From NCBI GenBank assembly GCA_964415065.1, contig CAYPYX010000010.1, positions 864 through 64,863 of the forward strand: 64,000 nucleotides of DNA, written 5' to 3'. The stretch is from an uncultured Rhizobium sp. (GTDB lineage Bacteria; Bacteroidota; Bacteroidia; NS11-12g; UBA955). The notes below the pieces were generated by a model. It had not been told where the DNA came from. It worked only from the letters and a program-made list of their open reading frames with translations, and did no database searches. Both the position numbers and the translations under genes were made by a program. Within the stretch, counting starts at the first letter, position 1; each line of letters starts with the position of its first letter. Shown piece after piece: positions 1 to 15,400 of the stretch.

Positions 1-1427
1 ATTGTCAAAGTTAGAGTTGAAATTAAAGCAGATAAATCGGCTAGTTCTTTTTTCAATTGCTCTAAAAGGTCAATTCCTTTAAGTTGTTGGGTTAATAATT
101 CTAATTGCATTTCTAAGCCACCTTTGAGAACAAATAAATCATCAATTTTATCATCTCTTGTAGATTGACTTTCGAAAATTGCAATATCTAATTCTTTTTG
201 TTGTATGTTTAATTTCTCTTTCCACTCTGGCAACACTCCACGAAGTTCAACAAGTTTTCTTTCCTTGTTGAGTAGCAAGCCTTCAGATTCTTTTATTTGG
301 AGTTCAATTTCTTGCTTAAGCCTCTTGGCGTGTGTTCTTTCTTCATCGTCCGATAATGGTTGTTTACATAAAAAACAATGTCCTTCAGGAATATTATTTT
401 CAAGAGGGTTCAAGCATTGAGGACAATTTGTAAGGGTTAGCTCCCCCAAAACTTTCTTTGTCAGTATTGAGTTGTCAAGGTCTATAATTCTTTTTTTAAG
501 GGTGTCAATAAAGCTTCTAGAATCAATAATATCTAAGTCAAGTTGATAAACATCAGTTGTCAATTCCCTAAGTTTTTGTTTCAAAGGCATTAACTCTTTT
601 TGTATTTTCTCAACTCTTGTAGCTGATTTTTTTGCAATTTTAAGTGTTTTTGCTGCTTTTGTTTTGGTAATTTCAGCTTGTATTTTATCTAATTCAGCTT
701 TTAGTTTTTCAATTTCTTTGTTCAGGCCTTCAAATGTTGTTGCATTACCTGATCTTGAGTATAGTTTATTTAGGTTGTCAAATTCTCGTTTCTTTTCATC
801 ATAGTCTTTATTTGCTTTTCTTAATGTTAACCTGTCATTATATAGAGAATCGTCATAAATGCCTAATAACATTTCGGATATAGCAAGTCGAATAGCAGGT
901 AAGTCAAAATTTTCTCTCCTAAATAAACATTGAGTTGGCGAATCTTGGTCAATATAAATTAACCTTAAAAGCTGATGTATAGTAATATTATTGTCTGTCT
1001 CACTTCTGGTTTCTGTAAATGAAAGTGCCTTGAATAAAATATTTGTGTAACTCACTCTTTCGTCACTTTGTGAGTATGAAAATGTTTTCCAATTTATTGC
1101 ATCTGTTTTTGCTTCCTCAAAAGTTCCCCAAAAAATACTCATCGGTTGTTTTAAGAAAGTAGTAACTGTTCTCTTTAACGTATAAGTTGCGTTGTTTATA
1201 GAAACCTCAGCAAAAACTTCTTTGCATTTTAATGATTCCGCGTTCCAGTTATTGTAGTCCCCACCTAAAGCATAAAAAATGAAATTTGAAATGGTTGATT
1301 TACCTGAACTGTTTTTGCCACGAATTATATTAACACCTTTATGAAAAACTTCATCGTATGCAACTGAGCCTTGATGTGTCAAAACAACAAGTCGATTTAA
1401 AAATAGGTATGATTTATTTGGGGTCAT
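1..1427 (-). CDS. SMC/Rad50-like ABC ATPase (LmuB / ABC-3C ATPase-like), N-terminal 475 codons; 3' end lies beyond the window
   Basis: Absent from the ORF track because no stop lies in the window. My translation from ATG 1427..1425 stays open to position 1: MTPNKSYLFLNRLVVLTHQGSVAYDEVFHKGVNIIRGKNSSGKSTISNF... Walker A GKNSSGKST at 1293..1319, Q-loop-like YIDQDSP, then a long K/E/L-rich coiled coil with CPQC-x12-CFLC at 366..425. The ATG overlaps the upstream stop (ATGACCCCAAATAA). Confidence 0.85.
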   Translation of the reverse strand, partial: MTPNKSYLFLNRLVVLTHQGSVAYDEVFHKGVNIIRGKNSSGKSTISNFIFYALGGDYNNWNAESLKCKEVFAEVSINNATYTLKRTVTTFLKQPMSIFWGTFEEAKTDAINWKTFSYSQSDERVSYTNILFKALSFTETRSETDNNITIHQLLRLIYIDQDSPTQCLFRRENFDLPAIRLAISEMLLGIYDDSLYNDRLTLRKANKDYDEKKREFDNLNKLYSRSGNATTFEGLNKEIEKLKAELDKIQAEITKTKAAKTLKIAKKSATRVEKIQKELMPLKQKLRELTTDVYQLDLDIIDSRSFIDTLKKRIIDLDNSILTKKVLGELTLTNCPQCLNPLENNIPEGHCFLCKQPLSDDEERTHAKRLKQEIELQIKESEGLLLNKERKLVELRGVLPEWKEKLNIQQKELDIAIFESQSTRDDKIDDLFVLKGGLEMQLELLTQQLKGIDLLEQLKKELADLSALISTLTLT

Positions 1428-1923
1428 ATTTGAATTCTAATAGTCCAGTCCTAGCTTTCCAACCTTTGTCACCAAAGAGAGGTAAGTTAACTAAATCGCT
1501 TGTCACTAATTTTATTACATTCCCCTTTTGATTTGCTAAATCATTGAGTTTTGCTTTTAATGCTTCAGGTATTTCCTTGTCAGTTTTTTTGACTTTGTTT
1601 TTTGACAATAGTTTTGAATCAACAAAACCATAAGATGCAAGACATTTAATGGCTGAAAGTTGATACGTTTTCATTCTTTCAAAAATTTGCTTTTGGTCTG
1701 TAATTTCTTCGTATGGGTTCCTTTTTTCTTTAAAAATATTGTCTTTTAAATGCTTTAAATCTGAGGGGAAAGACATTTCTCTTACTAGGTTTGGGAAAGT
1801 TGTATAGAAATCCCAAATTCGTAATTTGTCAATATGAATTTCGTCCTCTTTGGCATATGAAAGAAGTTGAAGCATCCTGAAAATGCAATTGTATAAATCG
1901 AAGGCAGGATGATATACTAACAT
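1414..1923 (-). CDS. 169-aa helical protein, candidate middle component (LmuC / ABC-3C MC-like)
   Basis: Complete ORF. It starts 4 nt after the upstream stop and overlaps the ATPase start by 14 nt. No enzymatic motif seen. The role is inferred only from its position between the putative effector and the SMC-like ATPase. Confidence 0.7.
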   Translation of the reverse strand: MLVYHPAFDLYNCIFRMLQLLSYAKEDEIHIDKLRIWDFYTTFPNLVREMSFPSDLKHLKDNIFKEKRNPYEEITDQKQIFERMKTYQLSAIKCLASYGFVDSKLLSKNKVKKTDKEIPEALKAKLNDLANQKGNVIKLVTSDLVNLPLFGDKGWKARTGLLEFKYDPK

Positions 1924-1927
1924 ATTT

Positions 1928-2497
1928 TTAAGTCCATTTAATATGACAATTACCAGTTAAAAAGTGTAGCATTCCATTTATGTCGTGAGCCGTAAATCCT
2001 AAATAGTTTTGGTCAAGTTCGTTTAATAAAGAATTTACAAGTCGCTCAGTTATCATTGAATTTATTAGTTGCTCATCTTCGCCTTTCTCCAATAATGGAT
2101 GAATTTCGTTTTCAAAATAGGAAATTACCAAACCTAATAAATGTACGTTAATTTGTTGTGCTGCCTCAGAAAATTGAAATTTATAGAGTTTTCTGTGGTA
2201 ACGTTCTTTTGCTTCAATGGCAAATTCAATAAATCCTTTTCTTCTATTTGCTGCTGTTAATTTTTCTTCAAGTCCAATTACATCATCTTTCTTTTTGTTG
2301 AAGTAGTAATCTAAATCTTCAATAAACGCAGTTAGTTGTTGATCGTTCTCTTGTTCTTGTTTAAACTTTTTAAGCAGAATGCCCATATAGGAAGATTTAG
2401 AGCCAGAAAACTCATAGTTTCTTGACTTGTCAATATTGCCAGCAGCAACGTCTCCGCCAATTTCGCTATTTTCAATAGATATTTTTTCGTGTGGCAT
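1928..2497 (-). CDS. 189-aa helical protein in the effector slot of the ABC-3C/Lamassu-like operon (function unknown)
   Basis: Complete ORF. The N-terminal tag is ISIENSEIGGDVAAGNI and the rest is helical, ending LTGNCHIKWT. No catalytic motif recognised. Tightly linked to its neighbours. Confidence 0.7.
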   Translation of the reverse strand: MPHEKISIENSEIGGDVAAGNIDKSRNYEFSGSKSSYMGILLKKFKQEQENDQQLTAFIEDLDYYFNKKKDDVIGLEEKLTAANRRKGFIEFAIEAKERYHRKLYKFQFSEAAQQINVHLLGLVISYFENEIHPLLEKGEDEQLINSMITERLVNSLLNELDQNYLGFTAHDINGMLHFLTGNCHIKWT

Positions 2498-2503
2498 TTA
2501 TTA

Positions 2504-2680
2504 TTATTTTTTTATGTCTCGTCCAGCAACATCACCACCAATTTTGCTGTCTTTAATATTTACTTTACCTGAGTTTTTATTGCTGGTCTTTTTCATTACA
2601 AATTTAAAGATTACTCCTGCTGCAGTAATTGTAGCAATAACAGCTAAAATTATTTGTGTTACGTTGTCGCTAAAGTTCAT
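2504..2680 (-). CDS. 58-aa single-pass membrane peptide (uncalled, below the track cutoff)
   Basis: My translation: MNFSDNVTQIILAVIATITAAGVIFKFVMKKTSNKNSGKVNIKDSKIGGDVAGRDIKK. ATG at 2680..2678 and TAA at 2506..2504, 6 nt before the next ATG. One TM helix followed by a tail that repeats the IGGDVA motif of the next protein. Confidence 0.6.
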   Translation of the reverse strand: MNFSDNVTQIILAVIATITAAGVIFKFVMKKTSNKNSGKVNIKDSKIGGDVAGRDIKK

Positions 2681-2832
2681 ATTTTAAATTGATTAAATTA
2701 TCTGTGTATGTTGGTTTGTTAAAATTACGGCTAACCTATTTATCTGTGCACCATTGCTTAAATAAATCCAAGCATTTAGCAAATATCCCAACCATTGTAA
2801 ATCTATACAATAAAAAAGGTAAATAAAAACGG

Positions 2833-2861
2833 TAATTATACCCTGTTTTAGGGTATAATTA
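2833..2861 (-). terminator. Hairpin downstream of the HTH_17 gene (putative Rho-independent terminator or operator)
   Basis: Perfect 12-bp stem taattataccct / agggtataatta with loop gtttt. On the minus strand it is followed by the T-rich run ccgtttttatttacctttttt. Confidence 0.5.
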
Positions 2862-2894
2862 ATAGTTGACGTTTAAATAGCATAGCATCTCGAA

Positions 2895-3260
2895 TTAATC
2901 TTCATCTTCCTTCAAGCTCACCATGGCTTGAATCATCCTTTGTATATCTTCCTGGAAAGAACTGACCTTCGGAATTTCAGGAATATGCATCAATCCTTTC
3001 ACTTGATTAACTGCAAAGTAATTCCGTTTATTGATTCTGGTAGGAGTTAGTTTGCCTGCTTTGATGTAATTATCCATGGTGCGTCGACTGACACGAAGCA
3101 TCGCCATCACGTCATAAGTGTCCACCCATTTTGAGGTGAAATCGTCAACAGGATTTTTCAAGCTGTTGATTTCGGCTTGCAAATTTGTGAGCATCGATTT
3201 CAATTCGATGAACTGCTCCAAATTGAAAGTTTTCTGCATTTTTTGCATCCATATCGACAT
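2895..3260 (-). CDS. Helix-turn-helix DNA-binding protein, HTH_17 / excisionase-like (mobile-element type)
   Basis: WVDTYDVMAMLRVSRRTMDNYIKAGKLTPTRINKRNYF matches the MerR-superfamily Xis-like HTH common in Bacteroidota integrative elements. Confidence 0.75.
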   Translation of the reverse strand: MSIWMQKMQKTFNLEQFIELKSMLTNLQAEINSLKNPVDDFTSKWVDTYDVMAMLRVSRRTMDNYIKAGKLTPTRINKRNYFAVNQVKGLMHIPEIPKVSSFQEDIQRMIQAMVSLKEDED

Positions 3261-3470
3261 TTTGAGTGTCAGAAATATGAAAACATTAATAACAAATGAA
3301 TTAGAGCTTAAAAGTTAACAAAATATGTGCAACAAATCACTTTGAGTATAAAGCATGAACATCAAAGGGTTTAGAATATCAAAAAAGTATAAAAATGAGA
3401 TACAAGCTCCAACAGCTTAAATTATTAGTTATATTTAGGTGTTATATCAGCCGTATACTTTCACTTCCAC

Positions 3471-4475
3471 TTAACTCAAAAGATAATTTCTTTTTGTTTG
3501 ATACATCATTAAGTAACCACGCTTATTTGCTTCAGTTAAGAACGAACGGTTTGTTAATACTTCCACGAATGGTTGTTTTTCCAAATACATGGACATTATT
3601 TTTTCGATTCTTTTTTCAGTAACCCCAATGCGTCTCCCAAATTCTTGAAAATCACTTTTATTCGGATGCATGCTTTTCTTATATTGATCGCTTTTAAAAT
3701 CATCGGCAAATAAACCTTTATCTAAAGCAAAATCAGAGTCATCAACATGCAATTTGGTATTCAACAAATCATAAATTGGGCTTAACAGGTAATCGCCTTT
3801 GGATGATTCTAGTAACGAGAAATTTTTCAAGTGCGCATCACCGTTTGAAAATAGAAAGTTGAATAAAACCAATGAAAAATACTTTTCAATTTCGACACGC
3901 CATGCTGATACATATTTTTGAATCAACAAGCCAGCTTCCTCATAACTGAAGTCATACTTAAAATTTGGTCCTGCGTTTTCACTGGTTTTTCCAGCTAAGG
4001 TTGCAAAATCTTCTTTGCCCCATTTTGAGCCATCGGCTTTTAAATCAAAGCGTTTAGTGATGTAAGCTGGCGAACCATTTTTGAAAAATACCATGGCGTT
4101 TTCTGCCGTGTTTAAGCCATATATTTGTTTGGCTATCTGCATCGTTAAATGTTCGTTGGCAGGAACTTGGTCAACTTTTTTTAAATCCCTAGGTATTGGC
4201 TTGAGGATGTATGTGCCTTGTTCTCCTTCCTTAGTTAATCGCAGTATGTTTTTCTCCAGAACAAAACTTAATTTTTCCTGTACACCCGATATGGAAATGC
4301 GCTTGCGATTTTCCATAAAAAGTTCGGCGACTTCTTCATTTTGCTGTGGCTGATCGTAAGACAAAACATGACTTACTTTTTTACCGTTAAATAAATTACG
4401 AAGGCAACTGGGACTGTATGTTGAAAAACCTTCAGCCAATTTTCCAGGACAATAGTGCAATTCTTTTAAATTCAT
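3471..4475 (-). CDS. hipT: HipA-family Ser/Thr kinase toxin lacking N-subdomain 1 (HipT-like)
   Basis: Gly-rich loop RISISGVQEKLS (4287..4295 encodes S61-I-S63) and catalytic motif NGDAHLKNFSLL. At 334 aa it is shorter than full HipA. Its ATG overlaps the upstream stop (ATGA at 4472..4475). Confidence 0.88.
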   Translation of the reverse strand: MNLKELHYCPGKLAEGFSTYSPSCLRNLFNGKKVSHVLSYDQPQQNEEVAELFMENRKRISISGVQEKLSFVLEKNILRLTKEGEQGTYILKPIPRDLKKVDQVPANEHLTMQIAKQIYGLNTAENAMVFFKNGSPAYITKRFDLKADGSKWGKEDFATLAGKTSENAGPNFKYDFSYEEAGLLIQKYVSAWRVEIEKYFSLVLFNFLFSNGDAHLKNFSLLESSKGDYLLSPIYDLLNTKLHVDDSDFALDKGLFADDFKSDQYKKSMHPNKSDFQEFGRRIGVTEKRIEKIMSMYLEKQPFVEVLTNRSFLTEANKRGYLMMYQTKRNYLLS

Positions 4476-4801
4476 ATTGACTTGATTGGTTTTACAGTAA
4501 TAGCACCAATTGTATCGTATTGTGCGGTGGCTGCAAGTAATCCAAAGTGATCTTCCTCGTCAATTCTCAATTGTATGCTTTGTAATTTTCTATTGACACC
4601 TTCACTGAGCATATTGAAAAAAAATGGGAATAAGAATTCGCTCCTGTATTCCTTTTGCGACTTCGGCAGTGTTAAGCTAATAGCAGGATTATTGTCGTCT
4701 ATTAAATACTTCTCGTCGTACTTAAAAATATACTGCTTTCGATTTTCTTCAATGAGCAGTCCTGCCAAAATGCCGTTGCGGTATATTTCTAATGTTCGCA
4801 T
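4472..4801 (-). CDS. hipS: HipA N-terminal domain protein (HipS-like)
   Basis: 109 aa. MRTLEIYRNGILAGLLIEE...YIFKYDEKYL...AISLTLP matches the N-terminal coupling subdomain of HipA, here encoded as a separate gene just upstream of the kinase. Confidence 0.82.
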   Translation of the reverse strand: MRTLEIYRNGILAGLLIEENRKQYIFKYDEKYLIDDNNPAISLTLPKSQKEYRSEFLFPFFFNMLSEGVNRKLQSIQLRIDEEDHFGLLAATAQYDTIGAITVKPIKSI

Positions 4802-4804
4802 TTA

Positions 4805-5014
4805 TTAAGGTTTCTTTTTTACTTGAAAGGTGAGTTCCATTCCCAATACTTCAGCTAATTTATTGATCACATCTAACGAGGGATTACCTTGTCCCTTCTC
4901 TAATTTGTACAAGGTATTAATGCTGATTTGAGCCAATTCAGCCAAGTGAGGTTGGGTTATTTCCAGATCCTTACGTCTGTTTTTAATGACTTTGCCTAAG
5001 TCCGTTGCTAACAT
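4805..5014 (-). CDS. hipB: XRE-family helix-turn-helix transcriptional regulator (HipB-like)
   Basis: 69 aa. LGKVIKNRRKDLEITQPHLAELAQISINTLYKLEKGQGNPSLDVINKLAEVLGMEL is a canonical Cro/C1 HTH. First gene of the three-gene module. Confidence 0.9.
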   Translation of the reverse strand: MLATDLGKVIKNRRKDLEITQPHLAELAQISINTLYKLEKGQGNPSLDVINKLAEVLGMELTFQVKKKP

Positions 5015-5147
5015 TATAATGTGATTTATGAGTCAAAGCTACAAATTTTAATTTAAATACACAATAAAATCACAATATAGTGTGATATTATTGTAACTAA
5101 TCGACAATCAAAGTATAGATACATGCAAAATCACATTATAATGTGTG
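5009..5147. promoter_or_regulatory. Three ATCACA-N6-TGTGAT-type palindromic operators in the hipBST promoter region
   Basis: Site A is acattataatgtgat at 5011..5025 and overlaps the hipB ATG. Site B is atcacaatatagtgtgat at 5069..5086. Site C is atcacattataatgtg at 5130..5145, whose core cacattataatgtg is a perfect palindrome. Centres are about 60 bp apart. Confidence 0.55.
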
Positions 5148-5227
5148 TTGTCCATTCTCACCCATCTCATTATTTTTTCAAGCACCCAATCCCCAATTAA
5201 TTAAATCACTTCAATTAATATTTTTAA

Positions 5228-5911
5228 TTAATTCACAGTTGCTGATTTTGCTTGAAAAACTAGGAAATCAGTATTGCCTCCAGTGCCGAATACGCTAATG
5301 TTGCCTTTGACTAATTTGGGTTTTTTACAAGCCATACAACCCATTTTAACAATGCATTGAGCGCTTATAGTTTGGCCACTTGTTATTGCTGATACATCGC
5401 AATCTGCATTAGGTTCAGAAGAAGCGGATGCATCACAATCACAAACTATTTTAGCATCACCCTCCGAACCAGAAGAACCACCCGATCCCAATTCTGAACA
5501 GACGCGTAACCCTAAATCGGTTTTGAAATAAAGGATATACCAATTGAACTGAGAATCAATGGAATAACTAAAATTTGAATTGTTATTTTCATCCATCTGT
5601 ATGGATTTCCAATTTGAAAAAATATGAGAGGTTTGCAAAATGGAGCCAATTGTGGTAGACTTAGAAATCGAAGCGTTGCCGAATTGATCATAAGTTAGCG
5701 AAATGGTGATTTTTTCAGTCGGATTTTCGCTATTCATAGCAGAAAATTGATGTATTTGACCCGGACTGTACCAAGCGCTATTCGGTGATTCTTTAGAAAA
5801 GGAACTAATAAAAAATAGTACTGGTATCAAAAGATACTTACTTGTTTTTTGATTGGAAGTAATCATTTTAATGCGGTTCATAGAAGCGAATTTGCTGATG
5901 GATTTTTTCAT
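5228..5911 (-). CDS. Hypothetical secreted protein with a Cys-rich C-terminal region
   Basis: Complete ORF with an N-terminal hydrophobic segment. No family recognised. Confidence 0.55.
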   Translation of the reverse strand: MKKSISKFASMNRIKMITSNQKTSKYLLIPVLFFISSFSKESPNSAWYSPGQIHQFSAMNSENPTEKITISLTYDQFGNASISKSTTIGSILQTSHIFSNWKSIQMDENNNSNFSYSIDSQFNWYILYFKTDLGLRVCSELGSGGSSGSEGDAKIVCDCDASASSEPNADCDVSAITSGQTISAQCIVKMGCMACKKPKLVKGNISVFGTGGNTDFLVFQAKSATVN

Positions 5912-6038
5912 ATTATTTTTTTACTACGTCAAGTTCATTAGGATAAGTGTTAAACGAATATAAGTGATTGATTTTTTGTGATATTTTATAATCCTCCCCA
6001 GTTGTTAGACCTAAAAGTTAGTGATGGTAAGCTCATAT

Positions 6039-7007
6039 TTATTCATTCTTAATAAATTTACCTTTAAATTCTTTATTGTCTTTGAATAGAATGATTTGAT
6101 ATATTCCTTGGGGAAGATTGGTTATATTTATTTGATTTTCAAAAGTTACATCAACAACAAGTTGACCAACTGAGTTGTAGATTAAGGCATTTCCAGAAGA
6201 CATACCACGTACCTTCAAAATATTGTTTGTGGGATTAGGGAAAAGCACCGTATGCTGATCACTTATTTCATCAAACGATACACTCCTAATGGTGTCAATT
6301 AAATCGATTATTTCGATTTCATCGCAGTAGTTCTTAATATTCAAATAGTTAAAAGATTCAGTTGCCGCAAATACAACCATTTGATCCTTGTTGCAAACAG
6401 AAATTAATTCTTGCCAAAATGGCGAATTGTGTCTTATAATTCTAAAAGGTATAAGACCATAATTAGACCCTATTCCTTGAGATGCAGAAAATGGTAAAGT
6501 TACTCTGTTATATCCAGATGAAAGAACCGTATAATATTGTGTTCTTCTTATTTGATTGTCGTGGTACTTAACATTTTTAACACTATCAACCAGCAATTGC
6601 CCGCTTGCTGAATGATTGATTTTGAACGTATCGCCTGCGTTCAAGTTAAAATTATAGATAATTAAATTCTTGACTTCAAAAGAATCATCATATGCATTAT
6701 ACAACGTGCCACTAAAAAATACTGTATCTCTTTTCACTTTTAAGAAATATACGTACGATCGCTGGTTCCAATTCCAATCTTTAGATTCATATAAAACTTT
6801 ATAAAAAGTTTCCATTGAGTTTGCGGAATCCAATAGCACAAGTTCTTTTGAGTAAGACGCAAAACTCAACCCCGGTGTAAGTGAGTGAGCATCGCAGTAC
6901 GTATAATAGGTACTGCTATCTAAATAACTATATTGAGCATTTAAATTTTTGTTACAAATGAATGCTATACTAATGCTGAATAACAATTTTATGTATTTCA
7001 TATTCAT
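6039..7007 (-). CDS. T9SS type A sorting-domain secreted protein
   Basis: Signal peptide MNMKYIKLLFSISIAFICNKNLNA. C-terminus LFPNPTNNILKV...LPQGIYQIILF...GKFIKNE matches the Por secretion tail. Confidence 0.8.
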   Translation of the reverse strand: MNMKYIKLLFSISIAFICNKNLNAQYSYLDSSTYYTYCDAHSLTPGLSFASYSKELVLLDSANSMETFYKVLYESKDWNWNQRSYVYFLKVKRDTVFFSGTLYNAYDDSFEVKNLIIYNFNLNAGDTFKINHSASGQLLVDSVKNVKYHDNQIRRTQYYTVLSSGYNRVTLPFSASQGIGSNYGLIPFRIIRHNSPFWQELISVCNKDQMVVFAATESFNYLNIKNYCDEIEIIDLIDTIRSVSFDEISDQHTVLFPNPTNNILKVRGMSSGNALIYNSVGQLVVDVTFENQINITNLPQGIYQIILFKDNKEFKGKFIKNE

Positions 7008-7288
7008 GATGTTTTATTGGAATTAATTGATTACCGTTGAAATTCTACCCATTTCAATCTCTCTTGTTGAGTCATTCATATCGAGTAGCCACAATCAACA
7101 GTATACCTCCAATTCATAACATAGCTTCGCCACCTGAGCTACAAAAAATTAACTCATTACAAAAACATATCGAGTGGAAACCCAATAAAACAAATCTACT
7201 GATTAGAAATTTGAAAAATATAGTGACATGTCACTATATCCCCAGAAAAAATAGGACCGTTAAAAAAGATGAAATTCCAATTCAAACA

Positions 7289-8752
7289 TCAAAACAAATC
7301 ACCGAAATCAAAGCCGTTTTGGATGCGTTCTTTGCCGAGTTTTTGGTGTTCAGCCAGCGACCATAAAACGAATTCCTTCAAGAATAATTTGTCGTGGCCT
7401 GATGCCTCCGGCTGGTAGCTCTTGAGTAAATCTTCCAGCGATTGGATTTTGTTTAATGTCGATTCGTATTCCGATTGTTCGCTGTCGTCGTATAAGAAAA
7501 CACCACCATCGGCAATTAACTCCGCCAGTAATTCATCGTATGGAGTGGATTCGGTCTTCTTGCTCAATTTTTCAATGCGAGGGAAATATGCAGGCATGAG
7601 CGACTTTACCGCAGCACCAATTAATTGAGTCGCTACAAAAGCGGCTCCCTCTTGCTCACCCTCGTAAACCAATTCCACCTTCCCTGTAATAGCAGGGATA
7701 ATTCCCATGAAATCCGATAAACGTACCGAAGTATTCGACTCCCCATTGATCAAAGCACGACGTTCGGCAGTGCTTACCAAGTTTTCTAACATCGAAATAC
7801 TCATACGTGCGCTAACACCGCTTTTGTCGTCTACGTACTCGTTGTCGCGGGCTTCGAAAATAATCTGTTCCAATAAATCTCTGGCCAATTCGGGAATGTA
7901 AACCCGCTGAGATTGCTCCTCGGTTATTTGAGATTCTTGCGCAGAAATTTTACGAGCAATTTCTATGGTTTCTGGATAATGAGTCAGAATTTGTGATCCA
8001 ATTCGATCTTTTAAAGGAGTAACTATGCTTCCGCGATTGGTGTAATCTTCTGGGTTTGCAGTAAATACAAATTGCAAATCCAAGGCCAACCGAAGTTTGA
8101 AACCGCGAATTTGAATGTCGCCTTCTTGTAGGATGTTGAATAAAGCTACCTGAATTCGAGCTTGCAGGTCAGGCAACTCGTTAATTACAAATATGCAACG
8201 ATTGGAACGAGGTATCATCCCAAAATGAATCACACGATCATCCGCATAAGACAATTTCAAATTGGACGCCTTAATGGGGTCAACATCGCCAATTAAGTCT
8301 GCAACGGTAACATCGGGAGTTGCAAGTTTTTCTGTGAAACGATCCGAACGATGCAGCCAAGAAATAGGCGTATCATCGCCTTTTTCTGCCATCAATTCTT
8401 TGGCGAATCGGGATATGGGTTGAAAAGGATCGTCATTGATTTCAGAACCTTGTACGCAAGGAATGTATTCATCCAACAAATTGACCATCAATCGAGCCAG
8501 TCGGGTTTTAGCTTGTCCCCGTAGACCCAGTAAGTTAATGTTATGTCTAGATAAAATAGCACGTTCCAATTCGGGAATAACGGTTTTTTCGAAGCCGTGC
8601 ACACCGGGAAACGAATCCACTCCGTTTTGAATGTTGGCAATCAAATTTTTGCGTAATTCGTCTTTGATGGATTGGTAAGAATACCCCGCTTTTTTCAGTT
8701 CTCCGAATGTTGAAATCATATTATTTAAGTCGTTTTTTTCTGTTGGATTCAT
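7289..8752 (-). CDS. AAA+ ATPase of the Mg-chelatase ChlI / ComM-like type
   Basis: Walker A LLGLRGQAKTRLARL and Walker-B region CIFVINELPDL (Asn where Asp is usual), followed by ALFNILQEGDIQI. An alternative ATG at 8719 would remove the 32-nt overlap with the VWA gene. Confidence 0.82.
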   Translation of the reverse strand: MNPTEKNDLNNMISTFGELKKAGYSYQSIKDELRKNLIANIQNGVDSFPGVHGFEKTVIPELERAILSRHNINLLGLRGQAKTRLARLMVNLLDEYIPCVQGSEINDDPFQPISRFAKELMAEKGDDTPISWLHRSDRFTEKLATPDVTVADLIGDVDPIKASNLKLSYADDRVIHFGMIPRSNRCIFVINELPDLQARIQVALFNILQEGDIQIRGFKLRLALDLQFVFTANPEDYTNRGSIVTPLKDRIGSQILTHYPETIEIARKISAQESQITEEQSQRVYIPELARDLLEQIIFEARDNEYVDDKSGVSARMSISMLENLVSTAERRALINGESNTSVRLSDFMGIIPAITGKVELVYEGEQEGAAFVATQLIGAAVKSLMPAYFPRIEKLSKKTESTPYDELLAELIADGGVFLYDDSEQSEYESTLNKIQSLEDLLKSYQPEASGHDKLFLKEFVLWSLAEHQKLGKERIQNGFDFGDLF

Positions 8753-9869
8753 AATCTTGAAATATCATTTCCCCTAAACCTTTTAAGCCCGTAAAAAAGG
8801 CTTTCCCCTGATTGGCTTCGGTGAATTTATCTACAAATCGTTGAAGGTAAGGGTCTTGGGCAATCATAAAAGTGGTTATAGGGATATGCAATTTTCGTGC
8901 TTGTGCAGCTTGAGTATAACACTGCTCGGTGATGTAGGGGTCTAATCCATTGCTATTCATGTAGTAACGGCCATCGCGTTCTTTAACACAACTGGGCTTA
9001 CCATCCGTAATCATGAAAATCTGTTTGTGTGTATTTTTCTTTCTTCGGAGGATGTCCATAGCGAGCTGAAGTCCCGCAACTGTGTTCGTGTGAAAAGGCC
9101 CAACCTTGAGATAGGGTATGTCTTTGATGGATATTCGCCAAGCATCGTTTCCAAAAACCAAAATATCCAGAGTGTCTTTGGGATAACGCGTGGTAATTAA
9201 TTCTGCCAATGCCATAGCCACTTTTTTGGCTGGAGTGATTCGGTCTTCACCGTATAAAATCATGGAGTGACTGATGTCAATCATCAACACCGTACTCATT
9301 TGACTTTGGTATTGTGAATCTTCTACTACTAGATCGTCTTCGGTTAGTTCAATTTCTGCAGATCCGCTTCTTACGTGAGCGTTTCTGAGACTCTCGGTCA
9401 TGGATATTTTTTCGAGCGCATCACCGAATTGGTAATTGCGATATTCTCCGGTGAGGTCTTCGCCTTGACCTGAAGCTTTGGTTTTGTGGTTGCCGGAACC
9501 ACTTTTGTGAAGATCTCCAAATATTTGTTCTAATGCCGTTTGACGAATGGCTCTTTCCGTTTTGGCGGTAATCCCGAAACCCGATCCCCCGGAATCGTTC
9601 AACTCTTCTCGAATGTATCCGCGTTCTTTCAAATCTTCGATGAAGTCATCGATGGTGTAATTTTCATCCGTAAGTTGATATTCTTTATCCAGTTCTCTTA
9701 ACCAAGCAATGGCTTCATCGAAGTCGCCCGAAGTGTGCGTAATGAGTTCTTTGAAAATATCAAATAAAACATCGAATGGCTCTAAGGATTTAGGTTCAAA
9801 TTCTTTGAAATAAAAACCGCGACTACCAGAAGATGAAATCATGACCTTATCAACGAACATAACCCTCAA
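8721..9869 (-). CDS. VWA domain protein with an intact MIDAS motif, partner of the AAA+ ATPase
   Basis: MIDAS VLMIDISHSM ... MITDGKPS. Sits directly upstream of and overlaps the AAA+ gene. Confidence 0.85.
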   Translation of the reverse strand: MRVMFVDKVMISSSGSRGFYFKEFEPKSLEPFDVLFDIFKELITHTSGDFDEAIAWLRELDKEYQLTDENYTIDDFIEDLKERGYIREELNDSGGSGFGITAKTERAIRQTALEQIFGDLHKSGSGNHKTKASGQGEDLTGEYRNYQFGDALEKISMTESLRNAHVRSGSAEIELTEDDLVVEDSQYQSQMSTVLMIDISHSMILYGEDRITPAKKVAMALAELITTRYPKDTLDILVFGNDAWRISIKDIPYLKVGPFHTNTVAGLQLAMDILRRKKNTHKQIFMITDGKPSCVKERDGRYYMNSNGLDPYITEQCYTQAAQARKLHIPITTFMIAQDPYLQRFVDKFTEANQGKAFFTGLKGLGEMIFQDYESNRKKRLK

Positions 9870-9992
9870 AATGTTTCAAAAACCGTGAAATTTCTGCAAT
9901 AAGACTCTTGGGTATAGTCGATATTCTCATGTCTGCAAATTTTATTCGTGGTTTTGCATAGTTATCCACTTGTAATTATGAAGACTTGAGTA

Positions 9993-10316
9993 ATGGCACT
10001 AATTTGCAAGTTTATGAGTAATTATCACGAAATCACCTTAACAGAAGCGGTGTCTATGACCCATGCTTACCAGAATGATCCTTTGTTTAGTGGTAAAACC
10101 ATTTCCGTTAAAATGGATAATACCGCATTTCAGGAATTGATGTCACAACCCGGCTGTGTGTCACTTCGATCTTATTTTGCTAAAAACAGCAACAACGAAC
10201 TTACTTTAGTTGTAGTTGGGGTGGATGCAAATGGAAATGATATGACTTCCGGTTTGATCATGAATAAAGGGGTTAAATGTCCCGTTGTCTGCCCTGTAGC
10301 TAGTCCTTTGATGTGA
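9993..10316 (+). CDS. Hypothetical small protein
   Basis: ORF only. The likely start is the internal MSNYHEITL. No family recognised. Confidence 0.45.
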   Translation: MALICKFMSNYHEITLTEAVSMTHAYQNDPLFSGKTISVKMDNTAFQELMSQPGCVSLRSYFAKNSNNELTLVVVGVDANGNDMTSGLIMNKGVKCPVVCPVASPLM

Positions 10317-10385
10317 TTTTTTGCTTGAAATAATTAGGATTCGAAAGATTTTTGTTAACAAACTGGATATACTTGTAGTATAGTT

Positions 10386-11006
10386 ATGAAACTAGGCTCT
10401 GTAATCCTTGAAATGTACGTTTTTTTGTTGATAACGCTTGGGGTAACCTGGGCTGTCCCAGCGTGGCGTAATCGGTTGTACATTCAACGAAAAATTAAGA
10501 GTCTGGACCGTTTTTTTATTTTTGGCAGTATTGCATTTGAACTAATTCTTAAAACCTACCGATTTTTACATCTTCCCCCAGCAGATATTGTGGTTTGGAG
10601 TTACGATGTGTTATTTGTTGGGGTGTTAAATGTTTTGGTTTACAAGGATTTACTGCCTGAAAAGAGAATATGGGTGTTTGGCGTACTTTTGGTGTTTTTC
10701 GTTTTAGTTTATTACCTTGGAAGCCATTTGATCTATTGGAATTATATTGTTTTGATTTTAGGTTTCTCTTTTCTGTTGATTCAGAAATTGTTGAATGATG
10801 GGAGGCCCACTTGGAGTTCGTTTTCTTTATTGAGTTATTCGGTTTTGTACATTATAATTTTTATAACAACGATTTTCGATAGCATTGAATTCAATTGGAG
10901 TGAATCAAAATTAATGGATTATTTCGGAATCAATGGGGCCAGTATTTTACTTTTAAACGTGATTATTTTATATGTCAAATCCCGCCGACCAGTTCATATT
11001 AGATAA
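10386..11006 (+). CDS. Polytopic membrane protein, possibly the sensor moiety of the adjacent kinase
   Basis: About six hydrophobic helices. Overlaps the kinase ORF by 35 nt in a different frame. Confidence 0.6.
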   Translation: MKLGSVILEMYVFLLITLGVTWAVPAWRNRLYIQRKIKSLDRFFIFGSIAFELILKTYRFLHLPPADIVVWSYDVLFVGVLNVLVYKDLLPEKRIWVFGVLLVFFVLVYYLGSHLIYWNYIVLILGFSFLLIQKLLNDGRPTWSSFSLLSYSVLYIIIFITTIFDSIEFNWSESKLMDYFGINGASILLLNVIILYVKSRRPVHIR

Positions 11007-11745
11007 CATTTTTGTATTTCTACCTACGGTTGCAGTTGCCACGTCGGCACTGATTTTTGTGTATATAAGTTTCATGTATCAATTGAGAAAGTTGCGGAGA
11101 TTTAAACGAATACAATTCAGCATGGTGGAGGAGGAGCGCAAACGAATTGCCAATGATTTGCATGATTATGTGGGGGGAAGATTGGTGCAAGTGCGTGAGA
11201 AATTGCTTGAAGTTATCCCCGAAATAAAAGATAAAAAAATAGCGGAGGAGGTCAATGAATCCGTGATGAATATTCGTAATTTTCATAACGACATTCGGCA
11301 TTTAGTAGAATACATATATCCCCGAGAAATGATGAAAGGAGATTGGCGGGGAAGCTTTTTGAGGATGGGAGTTGACATGTCCACGAACAAAACTCGAGTG
11401 CAAATTGAAATCGAAGAAGAATTGGAATTGCCTTTAGAAACAGCGAAACAACTATTTTTAATTGTACAAGAAAAAATTACCAATGCGATATCACATGAGC
11501 AACCCAGTCATATTGTTGTTGATATATACACCAGTGATAATGGTGAGAATGGTGTTTTGGAAATGGTATATCAAAGTAAGAAGCATTTAAATGAAGATTA
11601 TAAAGTAAAAACAATTACGGTAAATGGACGAGGATTGTATTCAATTGATGAACGAATTAAGTATATTAGAGGTAAAATAAAGAAATACTTGTTGGGATCT
11701 TATTTGCATGATACCATTGAATTTCCCTTGAATAAAAAGAATTGA
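10972..11745 (+). CDS. Sensor histidine kinase, HisKA_3 (NarL/DesK) type
   Basis: One TM helix, H-box RIANDLHDYVGGRLV, N-box QEKITNAISH, and a G-rich VNGRGLYSIDERI. Confidence 0.85.
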   Translation: MSNPADQFILDNIFVFLPTVAVATSALIFVYISFMYQLRKLRRFKRIQFSMVEEERKRIANDLHDYVGGRLVQVREKLLEVIPEIKDKKIAEEVNESVMNIRNFHNDIRHLVEYIYPREMMKGDWRGSFLRMGVDMSTNKTRVQIEIEEELELPLETAKQLFLIVQEKITNAISHEQPSHIVVDIYTSDNGENGVLEMVYQSKKHLNEDYKVKTITVNGRGLYSIDERIKYIRGKIKKYLLGSYLHDTIEFPLNKKN

Positions 11746-11764
11746 ACTTGACACCTTTAAAAAA

Positions 11765-12409
11765 ATGAATTCAATTACTCAAGTTGAACCCGTTAAGTTG
11801 GTTCTATTAGACGATCATCCCGGCATTTTAGAACTTCTTAAATTGAGAATACATCGTATTGAGCCCAATTCCAGTGTGGTTACTTTTTCAGAAGTGGAGA
11901 ATGCTCTGATGCATATGCTTAAAAATCGACCTGATTTTGTGATCACGGACTTGCATATTCATGTGGGTAAATCGCTTGCACTGCCAAAATACTGTTTTGA
12001 AAACGGTATTCCTTATATGGTTTACACCAGTTATTTACAGTATACGTTGTTGAAATCGTTGGAGGATTTTAACTGTAGAGTTTTTGTAAGCAAATCATCA
12101 TCTACAATGGAATTGGAAGAAGGGTTATTTCATTTGATGCAGCATTTGCCGTACCGATGCAGCAGCACAGGGTTAAAGCAGAATTCGCCGGATTTTATTG
12201 AAGATATTATCCCACAACCCATAGTTACAGAAGCGGAACTGAAGGTACTTCAACTGCTTGTAGATGGTTTGACCACTGCAGAAATATCCGAATCATTGAA
12301 TTTAAGTAAGCATACTATTAAGAATCATTGTACTCATTTAAAAGTAAAAAACTCGTGTACACTACACGAGTTGATCCGAAGGTATATATACTGGCAAACC
12401 AACGGGTAG
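11765..12409 (+). CDS. Response regulator with a LuxR/NarL-type HTH output domain
   Basis: Receiver residues LLDDHP, VITDLHI, VYTS and VSKS. C-terminal TEAELKVLQLLVDGLTTAEISESLNLSKHTIKNH. Confidence 0.9.
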   Translation: MNSITQVEPVKLVLLDDHPGILELLKLRIHRIEPNSSVVTFSEVENALMHMLKNRPDFVITDLHIHVGKSLALPKYCFENGIPYMVYTSYLQYTLLKSLEDFNCRVFVSKSSSTMELEEGLFHLMQHLPYRCSSTGLKQNSPDFIEDIIPQPIVTEAELKVLQLLVDGLTTAEISESLNLSKHTIKNHCTHLKVKNSCTLHELIRRYIYWQTNG

Positions 12410-12459
12410 TTTGCCAGTACATGTACCGATAAACAGGTTATCAGCCTGTTTTATAGCAC

Positions 12460-15400
12460 TCAATGAACAAATTTGCCGGTGGCAAAGGCTGTTTTATCTC
12501 CCTGTTGAAGCTCTATCCGATACAAGGAAATTCCTTTTGAAGGTACTTTTATTTCAGCTCCCGACATGGAATACCAACGAACAGAGATCAAGTTCCAATC
12601 TGAGTTTTCCATAATGAATTTTCCATCAGAAGTAATTTTTACTCCATACGATTCCAAATGATGAACTGAGCTGAAATCCGTAAGTGTTATTGTTTTCGAA
12701 ACAGTGTCATTGCAACCTTGGTTCGTACTAGCAATTAACGACAATGTGTATTCTCCTGGAGTTTTGGGATAAGTGTAAATAAAGGTGTTTTTACTGGATG
12801 TATCCGAAGTGGAACTGGGATCACCTGCATCCCAAAGCCAAGAAATCTTATCATTACCTGCTACATAGGAGTAATTGATTGCTATCAATTGTGCAGCATG
12901 AATATTTAAGGTTGTTGGACTAGTGATTTGCATTATTGCTTTGGGGGATTCCTCCACTCGAAGTGTGAAGTACCCTGTGTCTTGGCACCCTTTTTGTGGA
13001 CCCTCGTAACGAACTCTCCAGTTTCCAGTTGCGATATCAGCAGGTGCATATTGGTTATTTTTTATGGGATGTTTTTCCAGTTCAGGAGCTTTTTTATTCC
13101 AGTTATACGAATCCCAATAGAATCTGCCATCGGTAGCTGGCTTGTTTTCTACGTACACCTGCGCTAATAAGTCGAAATCCGTTTGACCTTGACACATCAA
13201 GGGTGTGCTAAAACTAAGTAGAGGTTCATTTATCACTTCAATTTTTAGTGTATCTGCAAGATAACAACCATTCAAATAATCCTTGAATTCTAATTTAAAT
13301 AGATAGCTTCCATTTCGATTTAATTCGGATTGACTTCCCAAATAAAAACGCTGGTCTGAACTTATTATTTCATTGATGTTAACTCCGTTAGGTGCTTCTA
13401 ATGCCGTCCAAATGGGTTGATGCACTGAGGAATTAGACGGGGTTTTGATTAAAGAGTTCAAGGAAAGAAATCCGGTATTTTGACAAATAGAAGTGTCTAC
13501 GCTTTCGGATTTAACAGGTTGAATAACCGTCCAAATCAGGCTGTCGACTTCACGGCATCCCCAAGAATCTAAATAATGAACAGAGATACTGAGTTCGGCT
13601 TTTCCATTTTTGAATGCTGTAGAAGCAACTTTTTGTGGATCTAATAATAATTTCCCATTATTTGTATCGAGCCAACTGGCAGAATTTATTATTTTGTATT
13701 TGCGCGATGAATGATCTGTCCAACTATTTTTAATATCAATAGTGTTCAAAATGTTGCAACCTGTTGGAAGGGGGGATAATTTGAAATACTCTCTCGGTAA
13801 TTGTTTGTAAATCGAACTATCAGTTGCAAAACAACCAATGGAATCAGTAACCGTGAAGAACCATTTAAACATAGTGTCGGATGTGGTAATAATTCCTTGA
13901 GGTGCCTTGTAAGAAATGTTGCCGTTTTTGAGTTTGTATGAAAATCCAACTAACGACTTCATATTTTGGGTAGAGGTGCTGAAATGAATATCTGTTTTTC
14001 CACAATACAGGCTGTCACCAGTTAAACGAAGTTTGGGTTCGTTGTTGAGAATTACGGTATCGGTTTTAGGAACAAAACCCAATGAGTCATGTGTAATGTA
14101 AGGTGTTACATAATATTCATCGTTGGGGAGTTGTTCAGACAGGTTTTTGGAAGTGAGAAATGCTAATGTGGTGTTGCCTGATTTAGAGGTTACTTGCCAT
14201 TGTATAAAGGCATTCCCGCTGAATTTCTTCAAGAAATTCACTTCAGTAAAAATTCGATTACAGGTAGTATCACGTGATTTGTTTTCGTAGGGAATGGCAG
14301 GTTTTACGCGAACCAAAATTGGGGATACTGTGGTTCCTCTGGGTTGTCCGCTGCTACAATAATTGTCCATGACCAATAAATTGAATGTATGGAAAGGTTT
14401 ATGGGCATGAGATGAATCGGTTTTCCATTTGAAAATATAGGTATTGGGTTTCCCAGGGGTGCTATAAAGCCATGTATTTTTGTACTCGGTTTTTAAAATA
14501 GCTTCTAAATAGGTGCCGGTATCGGGATCGCCAATGGAGAATTCAATTTCAATGGTTTCCCCCGCAACGACAGAAAATTCCTTTCCGATTCGAACATAGG
14601 GATTGTAATTAAATGAACTACCAGATGCAGAACTGAAGAATCTTCCGTTGGAATAATAAGAATGTTGTCCAATTACTACCCATTTGCCTTGTGCATTTTT
14701 TTGTGTTTCGATTATAGAATAGCAGAATAAAGCTCCGTCGCTCGCGTCGTTTTTGTAAAAATACATTTCTCCTGATAGCGTATCGAAATTGAATCCACGA
14801 GGAGGGAAAATATTGCGGCTGGCTTTGGCAAAACCATCCGTAGTGCCAACACCTGTAAAAGTTTTAATAGGCACTGCCACTGAATACTGATTGTTTAAGG
14901 TATATGCCGCATAGGAACTGCCGCTTTGATAGGGTTGTTGAAGTTTATATATAAGACGATCATTTTCTGCATCCATAGCATCTGGGAAATACCGAAACTC
15001 ACCGGCTGAATTATCTCTGGGGATGTGATTTCTGACCATCGGTGCATCATTGCTCATTCTATTTAGTGTCCGAAGTGTATTGTAATACAGGGTCGTGCTG
15101 ATGGTATAACCGTAAGGTGATTTGATGTTGTTGACTAACATACTTAAACTTACTTCCGAACTTCCAATAAACGTAATTTGATCGGATCCATACTTTTTGA
15201 TAAAACTGTCAATGAGAGTATGTGTTTTTAAATTGATAATGGCGGACAAATAATATCTGTAGTTGCCCGAATATGGAATATTACCATTAGCCACTCCTCC
15301 AGGCATACACGTATTGGCATATCCTTTACATAGGGGATCTAAATTGGTAATGGAGTCTTTTTTGAAAAGAGCATTGGACAATTTTACAATGGGGCTTTTT

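Follow-up and report, generated by a model that had tools for sequence, protein, structure and literature searches.

The question raised by this locus is whether three small, tightly spaced genes encode a complete kinase toxin-antitoxin (TA) operon in which the HipA toxin is divided between two proteins, and, if so, how such an operon would work in its host. The genes lie at positions 3471 to 5014 of a 64,000-nucleotide (nt) stretch of contig CAYPYX010000010.1, from an uncultured bacterium of the Bacteroidota; the whole stretch is referred to below as the window. An initial annotation had proposed that the genes form a tripartite module of the HipBST type, on the model of the Escherichia coli O127 system. 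The three genes are as follows.

hipB: 4805..5014, minus strand; 69-amino-acid (aa) XRE-type helix-turn-helix (HTH) protein, predicted autorepressor.
hipS: 4472..4801, minus strand; 109-aa stand-alone homologue of HipA N-subdomain 1, predicted antitoxin.
hipT: 3471..4475, minus strand; 334-aa HipA-type Ser/Thr kinase core without N-subdomain 1, predicted toxin.

The gene coordinates were taken from the open reading frame listing and from direct reading of the DNA, and the three protein lengths, the 3-nt gap, and the ATGA overlap of the initial annotation were confirmed at exactly these positions. At the hipB/hipS junction (AAA CCT TAA/TAA/ATG), the 3-nt gap doubles as a second stop codon, while at the hipS/hipT junction (...TCA ATA TGA) the hipT ATG overlaps the end of hipS by 4 nt as ATGA. 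The order hipB-hipS-hipT and the tight packing are those of HipBST operons. Each point of the proposed architecture that could be checked in the sequence agreed with it, and the closest relatives of known structure were HipT and HipS proteins. The cassette is thus very probably an intact three-gene split-HipA (HipBST) kinase TA operon with its own predicted triple operator, its function being assigned by homology.

The hipT product carries the kinase core of the HipA family. Its Pfam match to HipA_C (3.3e-37) begins at residue 60, and its length of 334 aa is inside the range of 291 to 346 aa of HipBST HipT kinases (clade III of Gerdes). Compared with all PDB sequences, it matched the Legionella kinase, HipT(Lp), first (7vkb/8ezr/7wcf; 2e-27, 99.8 bits, 35% identity over 251 columns), the E. 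coli O127 kinase, HipT(Ec), next (7ab3-5; 9e-14, 55 bits), and HipA third (1e-5). An AlphaFold2 model built with 66 diverse homologues as input had a mean predicted local distance difference test score of 94.2 and a predicted template modeling (TM) score of 0.93. Foldseek searches with this model ranked the known structures in the same order, with HipT(Lp) (7wcf/7vkc; TM 0.81/0.85) ahead of HipT(Ec) (7ab5; 0.82/0.81). The HipT structures were covered at a target TM score (TMt) of 0.8 to 0.89, but the HipA structures, again third, at only about 0.55 to 0.56 of their own length, because HipA carries an extra N-subdomain. Both sequence and fold therefore place the protein with the HipT kinases ahead of HipA, as expected for the kinase without N-subdomain 1 described in the initial annotation.

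The motifs of the kinase active site were located by alignment with the two solved HipT proteins.

Gly-rich loop (P-loop) S61-I-S63-G-V-Q-E-K codons: 4272..4295, minus strand; S61 and S63 are putative autophosphorylation sites.
Catalytic motif D213-A-H-L-K-N218: 3822..3839, minus strand; aligns with D197/H199/K201/N202 of HipT(Lp).
Mg2+-binding Asp D236 codon: 3768..3770, minus strand; motif I-Y-D-L-L-N, aligns with D219 of HipT(Lp).

The catalytic motif also aligns with the N-D-M-H-L-R-N motif of HipT(Ec), which contains D210, and D236 aligns with D233 (motif V-Y-D-F) of the same protein. The catalytic Asp and Asn on which the initial annotation depended were thus found as D213 and N218, together with the Mg2+-binding D236, and D213, H215, K217, N218, D236, and S61 are all conserved. 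Residues 57 to 68 read R-K-R-I-S61-I-S63-G-V-Q-E-K, where HipT(Ec) has M-S57-I-S59-G-Y-Q-P-K and HipT(Lp) has M-S54-V-Q-G-V-Q-K-K; G64, Q66, and K68 are aligned and conserved. In the HMMER alignments, S61 and S63 match the positions mutated in 7ab3 (S57A) and 7ab4 (S59A), which makes them the counterparts of S57 and S59 in HipT(Ec). S61 also aligns with S54 of HipT(Lp). The initial annotation had likened the S-I-S loop to that of E. coli O127; the equivalence of the two serines held, but no specific link to that system followed from it. An S-psi-S loop was present in 65 of 88 diverse HipT proteins and is the commonest state, in agreement with the S-psi-S group of HipT described by Baerentsen et al. 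(PMC10627512), and we rejected the loop as diagnostic of E. coli-type function on this ground. Six residues of HipT(Lp) have been reported to be needed for HipS binding (PMC9325769), and four of them are kept in the window's kinase (D144, E155, K173, and K217). We additionally observed two cysteines in the N-terminal mini-domain ahead of the P-loop: C9 (nt 4449-4451) is conserved in at least 90% of the 66 diverse HipT proteins, and C24 (nt 4404-4406) is the majority residue among them.

The hipS product corresponds to the subdomain that the kinase lacks. It matched Couple_hipA in Pfam (3.8e-20; model positions 1 to 98 of 99) and TIGR03071 in NCBIfam over the full model length (8e-26). The profile searches thus recovered both domains expected from the initial annotation, HipA_C in the kinase and a full-length HipA N-subdomain 1 in the 109-aa protein. 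The closest solved relatives were HipS(Lp) (1.1e-10, 45.2 bits), HipS(Ec) (8e-9, 39.1 bits), and Haemophilus influenzae HI_0666 (8e-8). The predicted kinship with HipA N-subdomain 1 is based on profiles and solved HipS structures, and it holds at the profile level only. In the SEGV motif of the protein, E67 and G68 are conserved, and Val69 occupies the position of Trp65 in E. coli HipS. Membership in an E. coli O127-type subgroup, judged by the Trp65 wedge, was rejected on the basis of this residue. Val was also the commonest residue at this position (112 of 131 aligned HipS proteins, most of them close homologues with at least 79% identity to that of the window), while Trp was confined to one distant paralogous lineage.

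The hipB product is a minimal HTH protein (HTH_3, 1.2e-11, Pfam), with HipB(Lp) (8ezt) among its PDB matches (2e-4). It contains no Trp in its 69 residues and therefore has no C-terminal Trp or extension. This agrees with the repressor of HipBST systems, an HTH protein without the HipA-inhibiting C-terminal Trp or extension.

Upstream of hipB, three 18-bp sites of the general form ATCACA-N6-TGTGAT were found, along with a promoter-like box.

Operator A: 5008..5025, no strand; 18-bp imperfect palindrome ATCACATTATAATGTTAG (gene strand), overlaps the hipB start codon.
Operator B: 5069..5086, no strand; ATCACAATATAGTGTGAT.
Operator C: 5130..5147, no strand; includes the perfect 14-bp palindrome CACATTATAATGTG.
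Candidate Bacteroidota-type -7 promoter box TAGCTTTG: 5034..5041, minus strand; 19 nt upstream of the hipB ATG.

Operator B is the sole perfect match to ATCACA-N6-TGTGAT in the 64-kb window, in which just ten sites with at most two mismatches occur. The centers of the three sites are 61 and 61 bp apart in the window and 60 to 63 bp apart in its relatives. In eight related loci (HipT 78 to 95% identical), all three sites are present at the same distances although the spacers have diverged, and operator A is centered at -2.5 in every one of them. The three palindromes are a clear phylogenetic footprint across nine cassettes and are the predicted operators of HipB. In distant cassettes (about 50% identity), a different palindrome, GCAT-N6-ATGC, stands at the same place, which suggests that operator and HipB may co-vary. 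The consensus of the Bacteroides promoter -7 element is TAnnTTTG, and a conserved box was found across six aligned upstream regions as TAGCTTTG, TAACTTTG, TAATTTTG, or TAATTTCG. This box would put the transcription start inside or beside operator A. A scan for sigma-70 promoters and terminators was uninformative, giving 9 promoter-like sites in comparison with 8.8 expected, with a consensus that is unsuited to Bacteroidota. For the Legionella hipBST operon, HipB has been shown experimentally to bind three evenly spaced 18-nt operators separated by 53-bp gaps (PMC10653801). The conservation observed here presents the evenly spaced triple operator as a general feature of this branch of HipBST.

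The cassette appears to be maintained as a unit. Compared with homologous cassettes of 90 to 95% identity, all three genes had ratios of nonsynonymous to synonymous substitution rates (dN/dS) of 0.09 to 0.16, indicating purifying selection. Every related locus examined has the triad with unchanged gene sizes, over a range of HipT identity from 95% to about 50%, and stand-alone HipS-like (106 to 109 aa) and HipT-like (334 aa) proteins have thousands of database relatives each. Parts of hipT and hipS are represented in short metatranscriptome contigs that are 95 to 99% identical to the window, which is weak evidence that the two genes are expressed; an operon-length transcript was not found among these contigs. 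The same 2.9-Mb genome encodes three Hip kinases in total, since it also carries two canonical bicistronic hipBA operons.

hipBA, contig C99 (L001:1426-3071): HipB of 117 aa and HipA of 432 aa.
hipBA, contig C20 (L002:710-2253): HipB of 102 aa and HipA of 410 aa.

Both of these HipA proteins have fused Couple_hipA and HipA_C domains. The presence of fused hipBA pairs in the same genome therefore indicates that the split cassette is a separate lineage and not a product of decay.

Homologues of the cassette are abundant. An HMMER scan of 1.84 billion representatives returned 3,700 clusters at an E value of ≤1e-3 and 209 at ≤1e-30, and many clusters are more than 80% identical. A short HipT homologue (E value of ≤1e-25) was present in 87 of 401 evenly sampled Bacteroidota species genomes (22%) and in 56 of 179 genera. 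Within the window's own genus and order, 14 of 41 genomes had a homologue, and the best match from the same genus was only about 54% identical. Proteins that are 80 to 99% identical were instead found in other families, under the names Crocinitomicaceae, Ferruginibacter, and Arachidicoccus. This distribution points to probable horizontal transfer. The same-genus relatives (loci L013-L017, L019, and L020) carry other HipBST lineages, with HipT identities of about 52% and about 33 to 37%. The lineage at about 52% has the GCAT-N6-ATGC operator palindrome and Ser at the HipS Trp65 position, whereas the lineage at about 33% has Trp there, as in E. coli. The genus therefore contains several HipBST lineages with different HipS inhibitory residues.

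The genomic contexts of homologous cassettes vary. One cassette lies beside a convergent hipBA operon with Mrr, restriction, and methylase genes, another beside IS66 with a HerA-like ATPase and an HTH_17 gene, another beside a DUF6088 gene between 3.2-kb direct repeats, and one among housekeeping genes. The repeats were observed in locus L025 (positions 1500 to 12500) and also in L026. There, two direct copies of a five-gene cluster, each about 3.2 kb in length and with a response regulator as its last gene, enclose hipBST (HipT 90% identical to that of the window) and the upstream DUF6088 gene; the two are 93 to 99% identical and 6505 to 6511 nt apart from start to start. This arrangement looks like the footprint of an insertion with duplication. 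Around the window's own cassette, no flanking direct repeats or insertion footprint were found beyond a chance-like 27-nt match.

The neighboring operon, about 800 nt from the cassette, was called Lamassu-like in the initial annotation. The operon is real, with matches to LmuB (4e-39) and to the Pfam families ABC-3C MC5 (1e-51) and CTD9 (1.6e-32). It occupies window positions 1 to 2680, where it also matches the PADLOC model LmuC, and it is truncated by the start of the window and of the contig. Since MC5 and CTD9 are matched alongside LmuB and LmuC, "ABC-3C system with MC5/CTD9" is a more precise name than "Lamassu-like." None of the six other contexts of homologous cassettes that were examined had a Lamassu operon, so that a functional linkage between the cassette and this neighbor is unsupported. 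Between hipT and the ABC-3C operon lies a 121-aa HTH_17 (excisionase/MerR-like) gene (2895-3260, minus strand) with a weak PADLOC match to mad1 (3e-7), and a similar 124-aa HTH_17 gene is found upstream of hipB in a 95%-identical cassette (L021-L022). This gene may mark a mobile or defense-island module.

Starting from what was read in sequence and fold (a HipT core, a detached HipS subdomain, a minimal HipB, and three phased palindromes), we modeled the steps of a mechanism on the Legionella and E. coli O127 systems. In HipBST systems, HipS and not HipB neutralizes a toxic HipT, and the three proteins form a complex. Here, HipS would bind HipT beside the P-loop and push the S61-I-S63-G loop away from its ATP-binding position, or into a helix that does not allow this position, thereby switching the kinase off. 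In doing so, the HipS of the window would be unable to use a Trp65 wedge, because the equivalent residue is Val69. Dimers of HipB would occupy all three operators and so repress the operon, with the site nearest to hipB spanning the start codon and probably also the point where transcription begins; HipT and HipS are probably recruited onto the HipB-DNA complex. The ATGA overlap would couple the translation of hipS and hipT. If HipS were lost or titrated, through loss of the plasmid or island, through stress, or possibly by a phage, free HipT would phosphorylate an essential translation factor and arrest growth. The most likely target is some aminoacyl-tRNA synthetase, modified at its KMSKS-type loop, and S61 and S63 are probable autophosphorylation sites that would modulate the kinase.

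Three other explanations of the locus were weighed. One is that a frameshift or stop codon disrupted a hipA gene and left hipS and hipT as the halves of a pseudogene, as might be suggested by the order of the two genes, which is colinear with fused HipA, and by a junction of only a 4-nt overlap. However, thousands of database proteins and all related loci show the same split with the same lengths, both genes have dN/dS values of about 0.1, HipT begins with a confidently folded segment of its own (about 56 residues), and its kinship with the fused HipA proteins of the same genome is remote. This explanation was rejected on the basis of the conserved split, the purifying selection, and the separate fused hipBA copies, and we regard it as extremely improbable. 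A different proposal concerns only the physiological role, and the same molecular mechanism is possible under it: the operon would serve mainly not in addiction or persistence but in anti-phage abortive infection within a defense island, with HipT being released on infection and halting translation alongside the Lamassu/ABC-3C system. The ABC-3C operon only about 800 nt away is in line with this role, as are the homologous cassettes beside Mrr/restriction/methyltransferase genes, a second hipBA, IS66 with a HerA-like ATPase, or DUF6088. Weak PADLOC matches to the candidate system PDC-M03A/B (9e-7 and 7e-5) and the speculation that other Hip kinases act in phage defense (Gerdes et al. 2021; PMC8262856) point the same way. 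However, the PADLOC matches are partial and remote, the Lamassu linkage is not conserved, one homologue lies among housekeeping genes, and phage defense by any HipBST was not found in the literature consulted for this question. We consider abortive infection unlikely to be the main role.

The comparison drawn in the initial annotation also implied that HipT phosphorylates TrpS specifically, like E. coli O127 HipT. The S-I-S loop is shared with HipT(Ec), and the HipT proteins of E. coli, H. influenzae, and Tolumonas auensis are all suppressed by TrpS (PMC6581861). However, the S-psi-S loop is the general state of the family and uninformative on the target, the window's HipT falls outside the E. 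coli clade, and its sequence is nearer to HipT(Lp). Neither TrpS nor GltX relieves the toxicity of HipT(Lp), and its S54A/D mutants are still toxic (PMC10653801). Since TrpS is not the target in Legionella, whose HipBST is the nearer characterized relative, it cannot be taken for granted as the target of the window's kinase, and we find a TrpS-specific kinase doubtful. Set against these alternatives, a functional and horizontally mobile type II tripartite TA operon, hipB-hipS-hipT, is in our judgment highly likely.

Several observations weigh against this conclusion. Homology is the basis on which toxicity, neutralization by HipS, binding of HipB to DNA, and the target have been assigned. The hipB product scored 63 bits with the TIGR03070 couple_hipB model, under the model's cutoff of 71.65 bits. 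With phmmer, the hipS product aligned colinearly with residues 12 to 105 of E. coli HipA, but only weakly (E value of about 0.05), and it gave no match to the N termini of the genome's own two HipA proteins. Of the six HipT(Lp) residues needed for HipS binding, two are changed in the window's kinase (R134 to L145 and R154 to S165), and the Trp65 equivalent in HipS is Val, so that the interface cannot be carried over in detail. The metatranscriptome contigs are short, come from near relatives, and may contain DNA. In addition, the maximum-likelihood tree leaves the deep branching of HipT unresolved, with the window's HipT inside neither the Legionella nor the E. coli clade.

The cassette is correctly identified but ordinary, a very common and mobile module of an already described Bacteroidota family. 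HipBST is a described TA family with crystal structures, the occurrence of Legionella-type homologues across the Fibrobacterota-Chlorobiota-Bacteroidota (FCB) superphylum has already been reported (Lin et al. 2023), and databases label such proteins as HipA-family toxin and HipA N-terminal domain protein. The value of the cassette lies in its being a clean environmental, nonpathogen representative of a very abundant clade, and it bears on the question of which target HipT kinases outside E. coli have. The occurrence of fused hipBA and split hipBST in one small genome is also a natural comparison of the two designs. We tentatively suggest, as a possibility below even chance, that the Bacteroidota clade combines an E. 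coli-type S-I-S loop with a Trp-less HipS and a phased triple operator of the Legionella type, that its target may be neither TrpS nor GltX, and that a higher-order HipB-HipT-HipS complex spanning the three operators may mediate repression. If this is true, the cassette would be a tractable nonpathogen model for finding the target of Legionella-type HipT.

Compared with known systems, the hipJS and hipIN modules and the PADLOC system PDC-M03 (PMC8262856) share a short HipA-core kinase and a HipS-like domain in a separate gene. They differ in that the HipS-like gene is downstream of the kinase gene, is often fused to HIRAN, and is not accompanied by HipB. In the accessible portion of the Gerdes 2021 supplementary table, no Bacteroidetes or Flavobacteria names were found. 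E. coli K-12 HipBA and the two hipBA operons of the genome share the kinase fold, the catalytic motifs, and an upstream gene for an HTH partner. However, N-subdomain 1 is fused to the kinase in these systems (HipA of 410 to 440 aa), and the antitoxin is HipB itself, which is longer (88 to 117 aa); E. coli HipA targets GltX.

The HipBST system of enteropathogenic E. coli O127:H6 (PDB 7AB3-7AB5; PMC6581861 and PMC10627512) has the same architecture, with HipS as the antitoxin and HipB as the repressor. Its S57-I-S59 loop corresponds to S61-I-S63 in the window, and its catalytic and Mg2+-binding residues, D210 and D233, correspond to D213 and D236, with a TM score of 0.82 between the kinases. HipT(Ec) phosphorylates TrpS, is autophosphorylated at S57 and S59, and is blocked by Trp65 of HipS (PMC6581861 and PMC10627512), and TrpS is the target of the E. 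coli, Haemophilus, and Tolumonas HipT kinases (PMC6581861). In E. coli O127-type systems, the phosphorylated residue of TrpS is S197 in KMSKS, and the S57A mutant of HipT(Ec) is nontoxic. In contrast to these likenesses, the similarity to the window's kinase is far lower than that of the Legionella protein (55 bits, about 21% identity in the structural alignment), and Trp65, which is essential in E. coli HipS, is replaced by Val69.

The Legionella system (Lpg2368-2370; PDB 7VKB, 7VKC, 7WCF, 8EZR, 8EZS, and 8EZT; PMC9325769 and PMC10653801) resembles the cassette in gene order and gene sizes, and it ranked first both in the sequence searches (HipT, 2e-27; HipS, 1e-10) and in the fold comparison. 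Its HipS likewise has no Trp wedge, with Ile in Legionella and Val in the window, and this Trp-less HipS blocks ATP binding through a loop-to-helix change or ejection of the P-loop (PMC9325769 and PMC10653801). Upstream of hipB, both operons carry three inverted repeats of 18 nt at even spacing, which are operators in Legionella and predicted operators in the window. However, the operators are 71 bp apart (18 plus 53) in Legionella and about 61 bp apart here, a difference of about one helical turn that would fit cooperative binding dependent on the face of the helix. The proximal operator lies 24 nt upstream in Legionella but overlaps the start codon in the window, the P-loop reads S-V-Q there and S-I-S here, and two HipS-contact residues of HipT differ. 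Legionella-type homologues are widespread in the FCB superphylum (Lin et al. 2023; PMC10653801), and the named homologues of the window's cassette (Bacteroidota, Chitinophagaceae, Crocinitomicaceae, and Flavobacteriaceae) belong to it. In the maximum-likelihood tree, all HipT proteins were cleanly split from the genome's own fused HipA, and the window's HipT stood in a large clade apart from the Legionella pair and the E. coli clade. As the base of the tree was unresolved, placement within either clade was dropped, and we therefore relied on pairwise scores, with the seed-based classification of Lin et al. as a guide only. By these scores, the module is nearer to the Legionella seed than to the E. 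coli seed (99.8 versus 55 bits for HipT and 45.2 versus 39.1 bits for HipS), and we take it to belong to a Bacteroidota clade of HipBST modules with a Legionella-like mode of action.

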